A stretch of DNA of 35,531 bases from an uncultured Thermococci archaeon (GTDB lineage: Archaea; Methanobacteriota_B; Thermococci; Thermococcales; Thermococcaceae), in contig CAZAPD010000131.1 in assembly GCA_964487115.1 (NCBI GenBank), positions 1-35,531 of the forward strand. The letters are read 5' to 3'. Position 1 is the first letter of the stretch. Every line of letters begins with the position of its first letter. Under the pieces are notes generated by a model. That model did no database searches, was not told the origin of the DNA, and saw only the letters and a list, made by a program, of their open reading frames with translations. Below are positions 28,824 through 35,531 of this stretch, piece after piece. Position numbers and translations under genes: made by a program.

Positions 28824-30197
28824 ATGGAGCTGCTGGAAAAGGCGAGAGGGCTGAGTATTTACACGGCATACAACATAAACGTTGATGCAATAGTATATCT
28901 AAAGGAGGAGCATATCAAGAAACTCGTGAGTGAATTTGGGGAGAATGCCATCAGGAAAAGAATGGATGAATATCCCAGGGAGGTTAATGAACCCTTAGAC
29001 TTTGTTGCTCGCCTCATTCTTGCTCTCAAGACAGGAAAGCCCATGGCTGTGCCGCTTGTAAATGAGGAGCTCCATACATGGTTTGATTCTCATTTTGAAT
29101 ACGATCTTGAGAGGATGGGTGGACAAGCGGGGATAATAAGCAATCTTCTCGCAAGTCTTGACTTCAGAAGGGTGATTGTTTATTCTCCAATCCTCGCAGA
29201 AAAACAGGCAAAAATGTTTGTAAATAAGCCCAACCTTCTTTATCCTGTTGTTGAAAATGGAAAGCTGATATTCAAGCATCCCCAAGAGGCCTACAGGAAG
29301 GGAGATCCTATAAAAATCAACCGCATCTTTGAGTTCAGAAAGGGCATGAGATTTAAACTTGGCGATGAGCTTATCGAGGTTCCTTTCTCTGGCAGATTCA
29401 TTCTCTCATCCAGATTTGAAAGCATAAAGATTGAGACCAAGGATGATCTTAGGCCATTCCTCCCTGAGATAGGTGAAAGCACGGATGGGGCAATACTTTC
29501 TGGCTATCAGGGTATAAAGCTGCGCTATTCCGATGGAAAAGACGCCAACTACTACCTTAAAAGAGCAAAAGAGGATATAATGCTGCTTAAAAGAAACCGG
29601 GATGTTAAGATTCACCTTGAATTTGCCTCAATTCAGAATCGCGAATTGAGGAAGAAGGTTATTTACAACCTCTTTCCTCTCGTTGACAGCGTTGGTATGG
29701 ATGAATCTGAGATAGCTCATGTGTTGAATGCCTTAGGCTATTCCCAACTCGCTGACAGAATATTTACCTATAATAGGATCGAAGATACTGTCCTTGGCGG
29801 CAAAATCTTGATAGATGAAATGAACCTTGAAGTTCTCCAGATACACACGATTTATTACATCATGTATATTACCCACAAGGATAATCCGCTGAGCGAAGAT
29901 GAGCTAAGGAACAGCCTTGAAATTGCAACGACACTCGCTGCAGCGAGAGCAAAGCTGGGAGGTATTAAAACTCCAGAGGACTTTAGGGCAGGTTTAACAG
30001 TTCCATACAACGAAAGAGGCGAATTCGTTAAGCTTAGATTTGAGGAGGCAAAGAGAAGGACAAGGGAGTATAAGGTTGTAATAATCCCGACAAGACTCGT
30101 CAAGAATCCTGTCTCCACTGTAGGTCTTGGTGACACCATCTCAGCAGGGGCATTTACAAGCTATCTGGCAATGCTCAAAGAGAAGGGGAATCTTTAG
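28824..30197 (+). CDS. pfkC: ADP-dependent phosphofructokinase
   Basis: AYNINVD, RMGGQAG, INRIFEF, SGRFI, HLEFAS and PVSTVGLGDTIS motifs; the N/R pattern fits PFK rather than glucokinase. Confidence 0.9.
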   Translation: MELLEKARGLSIYTAYNINVDAIVYLKEEHIKKLVSEFGENAIRKRMDEYPREVNEPLDFVARLILALKTGKPMAVPLVNEELHTWFDSHFEYDLERMGGQAGIISNLLASLDFRRVIVYSPILAEKQAKMFVNKPNLLYPVVENGKLIFKHPQEAYRKGDPIKINRIFEFRKGMRFKLGDELIEVPFSGRFILSSRFESIKIETKDDLRPFLPEIGESTDGAILSGYQGIKLRYSDGKDANYYLKRAKEDIMLLKRNRDVKIHLEFASIQNRELRKKVIYNLFPLVDSVGMDESEIAHVLNALGYSQLADRIFTYNRIEDTVLGGKILIDEMNLEVLQIHTIYYIMYITHKDNPLSEDELRNSLEIATTLAAARAKLGGIKTPEDFRAGLTVPYNERGEFVKLRFEEAKRRTREYKVVIIPTRLVKNPVSTVGLGDTISAGAFTSYLAMLKEKGNL

Positions 30198-30258: not shown

Positions 30259-31092
30259 TCACTCCATCAGCCCTTCTATCAGCCTTGCCTTCTCCTGTGC
30301 CTTCTTTAGATGCTCTACTGTAACTTTGGTGTAAATCTGTGTCGTTGAGAGGTTCGAATGCCCTAAGATTTCTTGGATAATCCTTATATCAACTCCATTT
30401 TCGAGCATATGGGTGGCAAAGCTGTGTCTCAACATGTGAGGTGTTACCTTTATTCCGATTCTTTTTCCATATTTGTTGAGAATATACCATACGGTCTTTG
30501 GGGAAATTCGATCTTTCTTCTCCCTTCTCTCCTCAACGAGGAGATATTCACTATTGTCATTTCTGCTGGCGAGATACTCCCTAATTTCCTCAATAACTGG
30601 TTTCGAAAGGGGTACTATTCTATCCTTAGCTCCTTTGCCTCCTCTAACAGTTATAATTCCTCTATCAAGATCAACATCCTTTATTTTTAGGTTGCAGAGT
30701 TCGCTAACTCTTAATCCAGTGCCATAAAGCAGAAGAACTATAAGCCTGTCGCGTTTTTTAAGAGGAGAAATTACACCTAAGAGCTTCTTCACTTCCGCTT
30801 TTGTTAAGGCCTTTGGCAAACTTCTTGGAACCTTTGGAGGTTTAAGCTTTTCAGCTTCCTCATCAAGCCCCTCAAAGCGGAAATAAGAACGGAGGGCCTG
30901 AACGACCAAATTTAAGCTTTTATTTGAATATCCTTCTTTTTTAAGCTTGGCTAAAAAACGAAGAGCAGAGCGGGAGTTCAGCCCATAACCCCCATTAAGA
31001 TAGCGTTTTATATAGTAGGAGTACATCCTCACTGTGTTCTGGCTCTTGCCCTCCAACTCAAGATACATCTGAAACTCTTCAAGGTCGCTCAT
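30259..31092 (-). CDS. xerA: Site-specific tyrosine recombinase XerA
   Basis: [25 protein letters not shown] and [12 protein letters not shown] catalytic motifs; 277 aa. Confidence 0.9.
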
Positions 31093-31978: not shown

Positions 31979-32710
31979 TCAAGAGTGGAGTTTAAAAATT
32001 CTCCCCAGCTCAATCTTAAGACTTGGCTTTTCCAGAATCACCGTGCCATCGGATAGAATTGAGATGCTGAGGGCACGAATCTCAACTCCTGCTTTGTTGG
32101 CCTCCATGAGCAGTCGGGCTATCTCAGGATCACCCTCTGAATAAGGTTTGAACTTCTCAACACCCGGCATTGCACCGATGAAGAAAATCATGGCCCTTTT
32201 TCCAGCTTTTGAGAGCTCAATGAGTTCTCTTATATGCTTTCGACCTCGCAGTGATGGGCAATCTGGATACATGGCATATTCCCCCTTTTTGCCGCCTCTC
32301 AGCACTGCACTCTTCATCTCAGCGTAAATTTCGCCGTTGGGACATTCGAAGAGGTAATCGAGACGTGATTTTCTGATTGTTACCTCTTTTCGTTTTATGC
32401 TACAATTGTTAAGCCATGGAATAAGATTCAGTTCGATAGCTCTCTCAAACGCTTTTGCTTGGATTCTCGTGTCAATTATAGCCCCTTTAGAATTTTTATC
32501 TTCAAAAGCAACTAAAACAAAGTCAGTTTTTCCTCCTTGTTTTGGAGTACAGAAGCACTTCCTACCTTTAACCATAAATTCCTCTAAGCGTCCAGTGTTT
32601 GTTATAAGGGCTCGTTTGATTTCCCCATTTATTTTGACCAATCCAACGAATCTGTTTATCCTCTCAATGAACTCTCCTTTAACGATGGGAAGCTTTAGGA
32701 GTACCATCAT
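31979..32710 (-). CDS. sfsA: DNA/RNA nuclease SfsA (sugar fermentation stimulation protein)
   Basis: RINRF, NTGRL, SRLDYL, EMKS and YPDCPSLRGRKHIREL motifs. Confidence 0.92.
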   Translation of the reverse strand: MMVLLKLPIVKGEFIERINRFVGLVKINGEIKRALITNTGRLEEFMVKGRKCFCTPKQGGKTDFVLVAFEDKNSKGAIIDTRIQAKAFERAIELNLIPWLNNCSIKRKEVTIRKSRLDYLFECPNGEIYAEMKSAVLRGGKKGEYAMYPDCPSLRGRKHIRELIELSKAGKRAMIFFIGAMPGVEKFKPYSEGDPEIARLLMEANKAGVEIRALSISILSDGTVILEKPSLKIELGRIFKLHS

Positions 32711-32788
32711 GAACAACTAAATTTTTTCATTGAAAAGATTTGTGACCAAAAATCTTAAAGTGATATATGCAAATAATTTCATCAGAGG

Positions 32789-33346
32789 ATGAATATGGAG
32801 GATATTAGTGTTTTAATAGAAAAGTGGAGGGAAATTTATAAGGCAGAGGTTAAGAGCAAAAAGAAGCATAAAGAGGAGGTTAGACTAACTCCTGAGAACT
32901 ATTTCAATGTTGTACGTCCGTTTTTCATGAAAATCTCTCCGGAGGATAGAGAGTACGTGAGGACTTTTAGAATGGTTTCGTATGGCATGCTTGAATACAG
33001 TCCATCTTTGAGGACTCTAATTCTGAGAGGTGCAGGATATAATTTAGCTCGCAGATTAATAGAAACTGGTGAAATTAAGGACATTGATGATCTACCAAAA
33101 GTATTTCTAAATCAAAAAATAGGGCTTCTTGATATTGTAGATGAGTCATTTAGCAAGATGAAAGTAAACATATACGAATGCATCAGCTGTTACCGAGCAC
33201 CTCCTATTGGCAGAACCCTATGCGACTTTGAAGCTGGGCTTATTCAAGGAGTCATGGAGGAACTCGTAGGAAAGAACATAACTCGTGAGATTTACTGTTG
33301 GGGACTCGGCAACTCCTTCTGTGGATTTGAAGTGATATTTGAGTGA
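32789..33346 (+). CDS. corQ: V4R (4-vinyl reductase) domain protein, CO-responsive regulator partner CorQ
   Basis: YECISC, LCDFEAG, EIYCWGLG..FC.F V4R pattern; position upstream of cooF-cooS. Confidence 0.75.
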   Translation: MNMEDISVLIEKWREIYKAEVKSKKKHKEEVRLTPENYFNVVRPFFMKISPEDREYVRTFRMVSYGMLEYSPSLRTLILRGAGYNLARRLIETGEIKDIDDLPKVFLNQKIGLLDIVDESFSKMKVNIYECISCYRAPPIGRTLCDFEAGLIQGVMEELVGKNITREIYCWGLGNSFCGFEVIFE

Positions 33347-33352
33347 TGGATT

Positions 33353-34465
33353 ATGAGCATTTTAGCAGTTCAACCTTCAAGCAAATGCGACAGTAGTTGT
33401 TTGATATGTCCTTGGAAAGAGAAATTTGGTTGCGCTGGAATAATGCTCCCTCTTGAAGCATTAGAAATCCTCAGCGCTCATCTCGAAGATTTTAAATTTG
33501 ATGAAGGACTTTTGACATGTCCAAATCCTCTTCTCCATCCGAAAATTGACATCATAATCAGGCAAATTAGAGAACTCTGTAGGAATATTATTCTCTTCCT
33601 CCCAATAGCGGTTTCAAGGAATTTTCTTCACAAGACTTCTCTTGAAAACGTTGATTTTATCTCTCTAATTATACCATCGTATAAAGACATAAAGTCAAAC
33701 CTTCAGACAATAAAAATGCTCCTCTCCCAAGGTATAGATAATCTTGAGGTATATATTCTGTTGGATTCCAACTCTGATTTCGCGGAAATCCTTTCAACAA
33801 TCGAGCTGTCCAAAAGTTATGGATTAAAGATAACTCTAGGACCAAAACTTTACACATCTCCATATGCAGACAAATTCCTTGAAAAAATCGCGAAGAAAGA
33901 AAACGTCGAAATTGGTCTCCATTATGGAAGGAAGTATTTTTACAATGCCATTAAGGTCTTCATAGACAATTACCCCGTAACGCTACTAACCTCTCCGAGT
34001 GCTGAGAACTGTAAAACCCTATATTTAAATCCCTATGGAAACTTTTCAAAATGTCCACTTTCGAGATTTGAGGTGAATTATAAGAGGATAACCACAGAAG
34101 ACCTAAGAAAAATGCTCTTTTCACCCTGTGCCATAAATCAAAACGTCGTTGGACTTTCACCTAAAATACGAGTCTCATTCGTGACAAAAGATGGTGTTGA
34201 GATTCCGGGGGAAATTTTAGAACTTTTGGAGTTAATCTCTCAAGTCAATTCATTTAGAGCTGCATGTAAAGCTCTCGGAGTTTCTCCTTCAACATATTGG
34301 GAAAAAATAAAGAATCTTGAGGAAAAGTTAGGAATCTCCCTAATTATATCCGTTAGAGGAGGTAGGAAGAAAGGAATAACAATTCTGACGGACTTTGCTA
34401 AAGACCTTTTGAGAGAATATAGGGAAATAAGAGAAAAAGCAATAGTATCACTTTATGAATACTAA
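33353..34465 (+). CDS. corR: CO-responsive transcriptional regulator CorR (C-terminal LysR/ModE-type HTH)
   Basis: C-terminal SFRAACKALGVSPSTYWEKIKNLEEKLGISLIISVRGG; lies between the V4R gene and cooF. Confidence 0.75.
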   Translation: MSILAVQPSSKCDSSCLICPWKEKFGCAGIMLPLEALEILSAHLEDFKFDEGLLTCPNPLLHPKIDIIIRQIRELCRNIILFLPIAVSRNFLHKTSLENVDFISLIIPSYKDIKSNLQTIKMLLSQGIDNLEVYILLDSNSDFAEILSTIELSKSYGLKITLGPKLYTSPYADKFLEKIAKKENVEIGLHYGRKYFYNAIKVFIDNYPVTLLTSPSAENCKTLYLNPYGNFSKCPLSRFEVNYKRITTEDLRKMLFSPCAINQNVVGLSPKIRVSFVTKDGVEIPGEILELLELISQVNSFRAACKALGVSPSTYWEKIKNLEEKLGISLIISVRGGRKKGITILTDFAKDLLREYREIREKAIVSLYEY

Positions 34466-34568
34466 AGCGTGTTTTTGTGCATGAATAAATTAAGAAGTTT
34501 TTGAGTTGTTTGCCGAACACGATCTCTTTTTAATTTTCTTTGTTTACCTAAGTTTTGAGGTGATAACA

Positions 34569-35204
34569 ATGTCGCTTCTTGGAACAAATTTAGAGAGGCC
34601 AACAATTTACATTGATCCAAAGAAATGCATGGGGTGCAGATCCTGTGAAATAGCCTGTGCAGTAGAGCATTCAATGAGCAAAACACTATTTGGAGCAATC
34701 TTTGAAAAACCAACACCCAAACCAAGATTAAAAGTTATGATTGCAGATTTTTTCAACGTCCCACTGAGGTGTCAGCACTGTGAAGATGCTCCATGTATGA
34801 AAGTTTGCCCAACTGGAGCAATAAAGAAGAGCGAGGAGGGCTTTGTAATACTCAACGCCAATAAGTGTATTGGCTGTTTGATGTGTGTTATGGCCTGTCC
34901 ATTTGGACATCCAAAGTATGAACCAGAATACAAGGTTGTTCTGAAGTGCGATTCGTGCATTGAGAGAATTAGAGGGGGCAAAGAGCCGGCATGCGTAGAG
35001 GCTTGTCCTACCAAGGCATTGAAGTTTGGAACTCTCGAAGAAATTCTGAATGAGGTTAGAAAAGAAAGAGCAGAAGAACTAATTTCGGGCTTGAAAGTTC
35101 CAGGTATTGTATACATGGAGCCTGTTGTTGGAGAAAAGAAGAAAGAAGAAAAAGCCAGTCCAATGGATGTCTATACAGCCTACTTGGAGGTTAAGTGGTA
35201 TTGA
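34569..35204 (+). CDS. cooF: CO dehydrogenase electron-transfer Fe-S protein
   Basis: Four Cys groups (CMGCRSCEIAC, CQHCEDAPCMKVCP, CIGCLMCVMACP, CDSC...ACVEACP); SD gaggtga supports ATG 34569. Confidence 0.9.
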   Translation: MSLLGTNLERPTIYIDPKKCMGCRSCEIACAVEHSMSKTLFGAIFEKPTPKPRLKVMIADFFNVPLRCQHCEDAPCMKVCPTGAIKKSEEGFVILNANKCIGCLMCVMACPFGHPKYEPEYKVVLKCDSCIERIRGGKEPACVEACPTKALKFGTLEEILNEVRKERAEELISGLKVPGIVYMEPVVGEKKKEEKASPMDVYTAYLEVKWY

Positions 35205-35211
35205 GGTGGTT

Positions 35212-35531
35212 ATGATGGTGGAATACGTAAAGTTTAAGATCCCCACAAAGCAGGTTTCCGAAACCAAAGGAGTCGCTGATCTCATTGAAAAGGCTGAGGA
35301 AGAAGGTGTAAAGACCGCTTGGCACCGCTTTTTAGAGCAACAACCCCAATGTGGATTTGGACTACTGGGAATTTGTTGTAGAAACTGTAACATGGGTCCA
35401 TGTAGGATTGACCCATTTGGCGCCGGGCCAACTAAAGGTGTTTGTGGAGCAGATGCTGACACAATAGTTGCAAGGAACATTTTGAGGATGATTGCAGCTG
35501 GCGCTGCAGCACACAGTGATCATGCAAGAGA
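35212..35531 (+). CDS. cooS: Anaerobic Ni-Fe carbon monoxide dehydrogenase catalytic subunit (3'-partial)
   Basis: Not in the ORF track because it runs off the window: MMVEYVKFKIPTKQVSETKGVADLIEKAEEEGVKTAWHRFLEQQPQCGFGLLGICCRNCNMGPCRIDPFGAGPTKGVCGADADTIVARNILRMIAAGAAAHSDHAR, with D- and B-cluster Cys motifs. Confidence 0.95.
   Translation, partial: MMVEYVKFKIPTKQVSETKGVADLIEKAEEEGVKTAWHRFLEQQPQCGFGLLGICCRNCNMGPCRIDPFGAGPTKGVCGADADTIVARNILRMIAAGAAAHSDHAR

Follow-up and report, generated by a model that had tools for sequence, protein, structure and literature searches.

How might a transcription factor with no heme domain respond to carbon monoxide? The question is raised by a corQ–corR–cooF–cooS cluster on contig CAZAPD010000131.1 (GCA_964487115.1) of an uncultured Thermococci archaeon; positions 1–35,531 of its forward strand were analyzed and are called the window here. 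CorQR of Thermococcus onnurineus NA1 was reportedly described by Kim et al. in 2015, and deletion of corQ is said by the same authors to impair the growth of this organism on CO. Heme is the cofactor of CooA and RcoM, the characterized sensors that bind CO; for CorQR, only genetic knowledge exists. According to PMC4791640, CorQR of T. onnurineus is an activator of the CODH cluster. We find a radical-SAM/twitch scaffold in the unannotated 260 residues of CorR, with seven cysteines conserved, which leads to a testable idea of heme-free CO detection. If true, a former radical enzyme would here serve a transcription factor as its sensor module, an unusual kind of recycling.

The four genes lie on the forward strand. 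corQ (32,795–33,346; alternative start at 32,789) encodes a stand-alone V4R-domain protein of 183 residues (PF02830, E = 5e-13) and is followed by corR (33,353–34,465), whose product of 370 residues combines a radical-SAM-like domain, a twitch region, and a ModE-type winged helix–turn–helix (wHTH). cooF (34,569–35,204; PF13247, E = 2e-24) encodes a 4Fe-4S ferredoxin-like subunit and opens the regulated operon. The 5′ part of cooS (Ni-CO dehydrogenase; 35,215–35,531), truncated at the window end, is 70–96% identical to the complete cooS starts of related loci, and an additional CooS match covering model positions 162–619 is present on another contig (C41) of the same genome. The corR product is 52% identical over its full length to a T. 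onnurineus protein (P0056) that keeps the same motifs (CDATCANC, CPNP, and the equivalents of C220, C234, and C259). The T. onnurineus locus has the same gene order (L017 type), and its CorR has the same cysteines and no architectural difference. Judged from these sequences, the ORF is a CorR orthologue. We take the HTH protein of the pair to be the one named CorR, following the sequence-only reading and the usage reported from the abstract of Kim et al. The two names are used the other way round in PMC6557876. Upstream of the cluster are three ordinary neighbors, an ADP-dependent phosphofructokinase/glucokinase (28,824–30,197), a tyrosine recombinase (30,259–31,092), and SfsA (31,979–32,716), the last of which is divergent from corQ. 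A sigma-70 promoter scan, whose model is inapplicable to archaea, gave no signal beyond chance, and no RNA run contained more than 0.19 of the words of the region.

The structure of CorR was predicted by AlphaFold2 from an alignment of 55 sequences with a mean pLDDT of 89.2. Residues 1–215 (33,353–33,997) consist of a (βα)6 partial TIM barrel, with the strands at residues 2–6, 49–54, 76–84, 102–107, 131–136, and 159–163, and subsequent β-strands. Beyond the barrel, the model contains a three-strand insert, a hairpin at residues 221–232 (strands 221–225 and 230–232), a helix at residues 248–256, and the wHTH. In a Foldseek search with the model, all of the top four rows were MoaA (E = 5e-10 to 1e-8). 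In a comparison with 48,161 chains by VIA-align, MoaA was again the best match (Z score 19.0, rmsd 3.5, 262 residues aligned over residues 1–271, 14% identity), and ranks 2–9 were also radical-SAM enzymes (Z score 13.4–15.3). The ESM Atlas grouped residues 1–265 with radical-SAM clusters (feature match 0.96), and an end-to-end alignment was obtained with the genome's own MoaA (E = 1e-4), in which CPNP falls on GGEP and C220 and C234 are paired with twitch cysteines 2 and 3. The sequence-only reading had proposed a degenerate radical-SAM scaffold fused to an HTH and had made its case dependent on a partial TIM barrel; the barrel appears in the model, and the proposal is borne out by the MoaA matches and the Atlas grouping. 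By sequence profiles, the relationship is less apparent. The Pfam Radical_SAM model (PF04055) matches residues 7–82 with 18.1 bits (E = 0.003), and the highest score among 31 relatives scanned is 26.3 bits, both below the gathering score of 29.5, whereas MoaA profile models match residues 117–238 (E about 0.001). A search of solved structures with the CorR sequence alone returned HTH matches only, and the family profile gave weak radical-SAM matches (SkfB, E = 0.046). CorR almost certainly descends from a twitch-type radical-SAM enzyme, and its description as a radical-SAM-derived domain fused to a wHTH is strongly supported. A canonical radical-SAM/SPASM protein on contig C53 of the same genome gave a weak match and was set aside, and none of 1095 candidates was a longer fused form of CorR (649–2000 residues), which is weak evidence.

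CorR has 10 cysteines in total. The CxxxCxxC motif noticed earlier near the N terminus is present as C12-x3-C16-x2-C19 (KCDSSCLICPW; 33,386–33,409), and LLTCPNPLLHP, which had been placed at the GGEPLL position, does align with TLTGGEP of the genome's MoaA. C56 is the first residue of the CPNP segment (33,518–33,529). The spacing between C19 and C56 is 37 residues, and the corresponding spacing in canonical CxxxCxxC–GGEP proteins is 36–41 in 8 of 10 matches from the same genome. After the barrel, the stretch CKTLYLNPYGNFSKCP (C220–C234) is matched in the alignment by CTRLRLTADGHLKTCL, the twitch hairpin of MoaA, and is followed by a helix and C259; this twitch remnant (34,010–34,129) is a candidate three-Cys auxiliary metal site. 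The domain had been labeled twitch/SPASM-like, and only the former term can be kept, because a SPASM domain with its two-cluster set needs seven or eight cysteines and residues 77–304 of CorR hold three.

Motifs for SAM binding were defined as in the SkfB paper (PMC6231123), according to which the SAM amine, a ligand of the unique iron, is held by the GGE motif. None of 52 CorR relatives has Gly at the first position of GGE. The aromatic residue before the third loop cysteine, replaced by Ile18 in the window, is present in 4 of 45 relatives versus 9 of 10 canonical matches from the same genome. A PG(V/I)N-like β5 motif remains in 4 of 48 relatives, all inside a divergent nine-row clade of a quick IQ-TREE tree, which was midpoint-rooted for drawing only and does not give the order of events. 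No acidic or Ser residue is conserved where β4 ends, although the register of this low-identity alignment is uncertain both there and at β5. With the GGE and aromatic motifs lost and the β5 motif apparently mostly lost, it is very unlikely that CorR still binds SAM and performs radical chemistry, and the protein is probably a pseudoenzyme. CorR resembles MoaA (GTP 3′,8-cyclase) in its CxxxCxxC loop, partial barrel, and three-Cys twitch region, but it has CPNP instead of GGEP, and the aromatic contact to SAM and, apparently, the ribose and β5 contacts are eroded. The first twitch cysteine of MoaA is also missing, with the distal C259 present instead, and a C-terminal wHTH has been added.

Conservation of the cysteines was counted in 48 full-length relatives after seven N-truncated records of 55 were dropped. 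The loop has the form CxxxCxxC in 38, CxxxHxxC in two, CxxCxxxC in three, and CxxC only in two, and it is absent in three. C56 is kept in 44 of the 48, and C220, C234, and C259 occur together in 45. In a thinned set (33 rows, <60% identity), the counts, beginning with CxxxCxxC and closing with C56 and the twitch trio, were 24, 1, 3, 29, and 30, and the cysteines are retained down to 22–30% identity. Conservation among orthologues, on which the sequence-only reading had also staked itself, is therefore found and extends to CorR of T. onnurineus. The exceptions are few. P0044, P0045, and P0049, which form one clade and represent a single evolutionary event, have lost both the loop cysteines and C56; P0030 lacks C56 and keeps the loop; and P0034 and P0046 have lost the twitch set and keep the other four cysteines. 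The twitch cysteines are also gone in L057, yet its corQ–corR–cooF–cooS cluster is intact, so the twitch site cannot be the universal CO site. C12 is absent in L059, and the loop/C56 site retains at least three cysteines in each of the divergent coo-linked loci L056–L059. A further cysteine, C305 in the HTH (47 of 55), probably has a structural role.

The substitution of C16 by His (2 of 48) and the altered CxxCxxxC spacing (3 of 48) fit metal ligation freed from SAM chemistry. C56 takes the place of GGE, which holds the SAM amine on the unique iron, and this residue is therefore a natural fourth ligand that probably caps the unique iron of the C12/C16/C19 cluster. NifB is a precedent for a radical-SAM cluster ligated by a fourth cysteine. 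Both C56 and C259 are conserved and likely metal ligands, a point that the initial analysis had passed over. The open iron that it had envisaged at CxxxCxxC is now doubtful, as a conserved cysteine, C56, stands where GGEP has its first Gly. Four cysteines in CorR could equally bind Zn; with this alternative in mind, we consider it quite probable that CorR carries at least one Fe–S cluster.

Residues 268–370 (34,154–34,462) form the wHTH with a long C-terminal helix. This region was matched by PF00126 (E = 6e-9) and by the ModE model TIGR00637 (E = 1e-10, below the cut-off), and by sequence to the structure 2ijl (E = 1.2e-6). VIA-align superimposed it on ModE (1b9m) with a Z score of 13.3 over 98 aligned residues, and the HTH_1 Pfam model matched 30 of 31 relatives scanned. 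The former designation as a LysR/ModE-type wHTH is accordingly narrowed to ModE-type. A full LysR-type regulator was rejected, as the wHTH of CorR is C-terminal and no match to the LysR substrate domain was found. The wHTH of ModE is N-terminal, in contrast to that of CorR, and the molybdate-binding domains of ModE are replaced in CorR by the N-terminal radical-SAM-like domain. Second, HTH-only matches in three genomes proved to be ModE-type regulators beside tungstate/ABC transporter genes, not CorR paralogues.

The gap between corR and cooF is 100 bp in the window, and in T. onnurineus the operon TON_1017–1031 starts in this gap (PMC4731540; promoter probe in PMC4791640). The palindromic motif CGWRTTC-N8-GAAYWCG occurs in this gap and is common to Thermococcaceae and Desulfurococcales, and we regard it as a candidate CorR operator. 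The exact half-site GAAYWCG was found in 29 of 34 regions downstream of corR, compared with 34 of 1818 upstream regions taken as controls from the window's own genome, and the full palindrome was perfect in 7 of 34 and present with two or fewer mismatches in 20 of 34 versus 1 of 1818 controls; these figures overstate the significance, because the pattern was derived from the same related loci on which it was scored. In 24 of 30 regions measured, the palindrome ends 5–7 bp ahead of a TATA-like box. In the window, a distal candidate site (CGTGTTT-N8-GAATAAA; 34,468–34,489) is an imperfect palindrome with three mismatches to the consensus, a level reached at least 330 times in its own genome. The proximal candidate half-site GAACACG (34,515–34,521) is exact and lies 5 bp ahead of the TATA-like box TTTTTAAT (34,527–34,534), the putative promoter of the cooF operon from its sequence and comparison across loci. 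The motif is absent from two loci without corQ (L058 and L059), where the recognition helix is also different. Another inverted repeat, TTCCAT-N13/14-ATGG(A/G)A, was seen by eye in the corR–cooF gap of these two loci only.

Gene context was available for 41 loci, one of which was too short; the 40 informative loci include the window and duplicate contig records. cooF lies 3′ of corR in 39 of them, and corQ lies 5′ in 38. The locus without cooF after corR (L044, genome G536) has cooS about 10 kb away, apparently on the same contig. The interval contains shikimate-pathway-like genes on the opposite strand, as read from their translations, and the operator motif is absent directly after corR. In L058 and L059, corR lies directly ahead of cooF–cooS, and corQ was found neither nearby nor elsewhere in the assemblies, which are of 0.9 and 1.2 Mb, probably incomplete, and from one clade. 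These two loci suggest that CorR may work without CorQ. Both carry a conserved ORF of 88–92 residues (2575–2853 in L058 and 2638–2904 in L059), divergent from corR and without a Pfam match above the cut-off, which might replace CorQ or be unrelated. In CorQ itself, an alignment of 16 orthologues shows five invariant cysteines (C129, C132, C143, C168, and C176). Its structural model has a pLDDT of 65 and matches the BcsD, YslB, PoxR, DmpR, MJ1460, and H-NOX folds (Z score 8–12).

Separate searches for relatives of CorR gave 20 close sequences, 29 representatives at 22–91% identity, and, by profile, 30. Named members from ten clusters that were looked up belong to Thermococcus, Desulfurococcales, Acidilobales, Thermoprotei, Zestosphaera, Methanodesulfokora, and Asgardarchaeia, among others. 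Two archaeal clusters of the ESM Atlas, with 56 and 60 members, have the CorR architecture, and 11% of one carries an automatic PF04055 tag; the databases thus partly register the similarity to radical-SAM proteins without naming it. Among 97 Thermococcaceae genomes, 19 have corR (18 as full matches and one as a partial match), and a first-look filter that may miss distant members found it in 5 of 401 genomes sampled from the phylum to which the Desulfurococcales matches belong. The family is small, with a patchy distribution. A CooS match is present in each of the 19 Thermococcaceae genomes with corR, and 15 others have CooS, mostly of a different, lower-scoring type, without corR. This second type was seen in G049, G055, G058, G066, and G067, among about 15 genomes.

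Here, we propose that CorR is a transcription activator with a catalytically dead radical-SAM/twitch regulatory module in which the state of a cluster is the switch, a reading to which we assign a probability of about 0.5. C12, C16, C19, and C56 would ligate all four irons of a [4Fe-4S] cluster, with C56 in the place of SAM, and C220, C234, and C259 would hold a second cluster by three cysteines, as MoaA does. CorR would dimerize via the ModE-type domain, and the dimer would bind CGWRTTC-N8-GAAYWCG just upstream of the TATA box with its pyrimidine-rich BRE position, aiding the recruitment of TBP/TFB. The state of the first cluster would turn activation on, and CorQ would be a partner in most lineages, not in all. 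As to the signal, an indirect route is slightly preferred and can be put forward only tentatively: the electrons that reduce the cluster may come from CO, via basal CooS/CooF. Direct binding of CO, either displacing the C56 ligand or occupying a free twitch iron, appears somewhat unlikely. The same degree of doubt applies to the boldest form of the proposal, in which CorR would be the first transcription factor built around a radical-SAM domain and would sense CO directly, without heme: CO would displace C56 or bind the twitch iron, strand β2 would move, and the wHTH dimer would switch at the palindrome, in some lineages without CorQ. In the sequence-only reading, the CxxxCxxC cluster was site-differentiated and CO was bound by a permanently open iron. 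The loop is intact in 38 of 48 relatives, the loss of SAM binding would in principle leave the fourth iron free, and the divergent loci L056–L059 keep at least three cysteines there; nevertheless, the conserved cysteine at the position of the SAM amine is an obvious fourth ligand, few protein [4Fe-4S] clusters are known to bind CO, and we consider this version quite improbable.

The main competitor places the sensor in CorQ, whose five-Cys V4R/H-NOX-like domain would read CO, redox state, or a small ligand, while the cysteine sites of CorR would hold structural Fe–S or Zn and the barrel would serve as a scaffold for docking and transmission. The five invariant cysteines and the fold that the low-confidence CorQ model shares with the PoxR/DmpR sensory domains and H-NOX are consistent with this, as is the loss of each CorR cysteine set in some lineage. 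In MsvR, DNA binding is redox-sensitive through the V4R cysteines (PMC3729527), and the secondary source PMC6557876 states that CorQR senses CO via the V4R domain. However, two loci have corR before cooF–cooS and no corQ, and a purely structural site in CorR would need no new conserved cysteine exactly at the SAM position; a sensor in CorQ is conceivable, at well below even odds. Alternatively, the barrel cavity or a cysteine site may read another effector, such as a metabolite at a free twitch iron, comparable to GTP in MoaA, or the availability of nickel or Fe–S, gating the synthesis of the metal-hungry CODH–hydrogenase. MoaA binds its substrate with an open twitch iron (PMC6231123), and aromatic and Gly residues after the barrel (G192, Y195, Y197, F203, and Y207-P208) are conserved in CorR. 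On the other hand, the distribution of corR tracks one CODH type, and the neighboring genes suggest no ligand, which makes such an effector unlikely. Finally, the retained CxxxCxxC and whole fold would suit a radical-SAM enzyme that is still active, for example modifying CorQ or CorR itself, but GGE is absent from all 52 relatives, the aromatic residue is lost in 41 of 45 and, it appears, the β5 motif in most, and the motif spacing or C16 varies; this possibility is the most improbable of those considered.

The radical-SAM/twitch fold covers the whole of CorR outside the HTH, leaving no heme domain. CooA switches by ligand displacement, and a displacement of C56 in CorR would parallel it. FNR, NsrR, RsrR, SoxR, and WhiB are cluster-dependent transcription factors; to our knowledge, none of them uses a radical-SAM barrel, and we know of no transcription factor with this fold. 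In HemW, a non-catalytic radical-SAM protein, the fold has been reused without a DNA-binding domain. CooA and RcoM are encoded beside the CODH genes that they control (PMC6557876, PMC11347149), and CorR differs from both in lacking a CRP-type or PAS heme domain and having candidate cysteine-ligated metal sites instead. In the literature covered on CorQR and archaeal CO regulation, which did not extend to the 2015 paper of Kim et al. or to a review on CO sensors from 2023, no description of a radical-SAM domain in CorR was found, and term searches of PMC12713403, PMC11347149, and PMC5316973 gave nothing on the domains of CorR. CorQR itself is already known, and the architecture of CorR marks it as a candidate for an apparently undescribed kind of Fe–S regulator. 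The candidate operator beside the cooF TATA box and the two corR loci without corQ are new here. Overexpression of CorQR already yields one of the best CO-to-H2 strains in Table 2 of PMC4791640, which makes the CorR switch and its operator practically relevant to syngas bioconversion and to promoters that respond to CO.

Some variation was observed around corQ. A second CorQ-like V4R protein in L065 (1498–2064; genome G391), located away from corR, has lost most of the conserved cysteines. In two genomes of genus g5, corQ is apparently frameshifted or shortened, with 167 residues and an altered end in one (L002, 2674–3174) and an ORF of 139 residues without the N terminus in the other (L006, 2616–3173); these defects may be due to sequencing error or decay. 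Upstream of corQ in L031, L033, L046, and L053, the translations indicate genes similar to those for corrinoid Fe–S subunits of the acetyl-CoA synthase pathway, together with a CooC-type ATPase.
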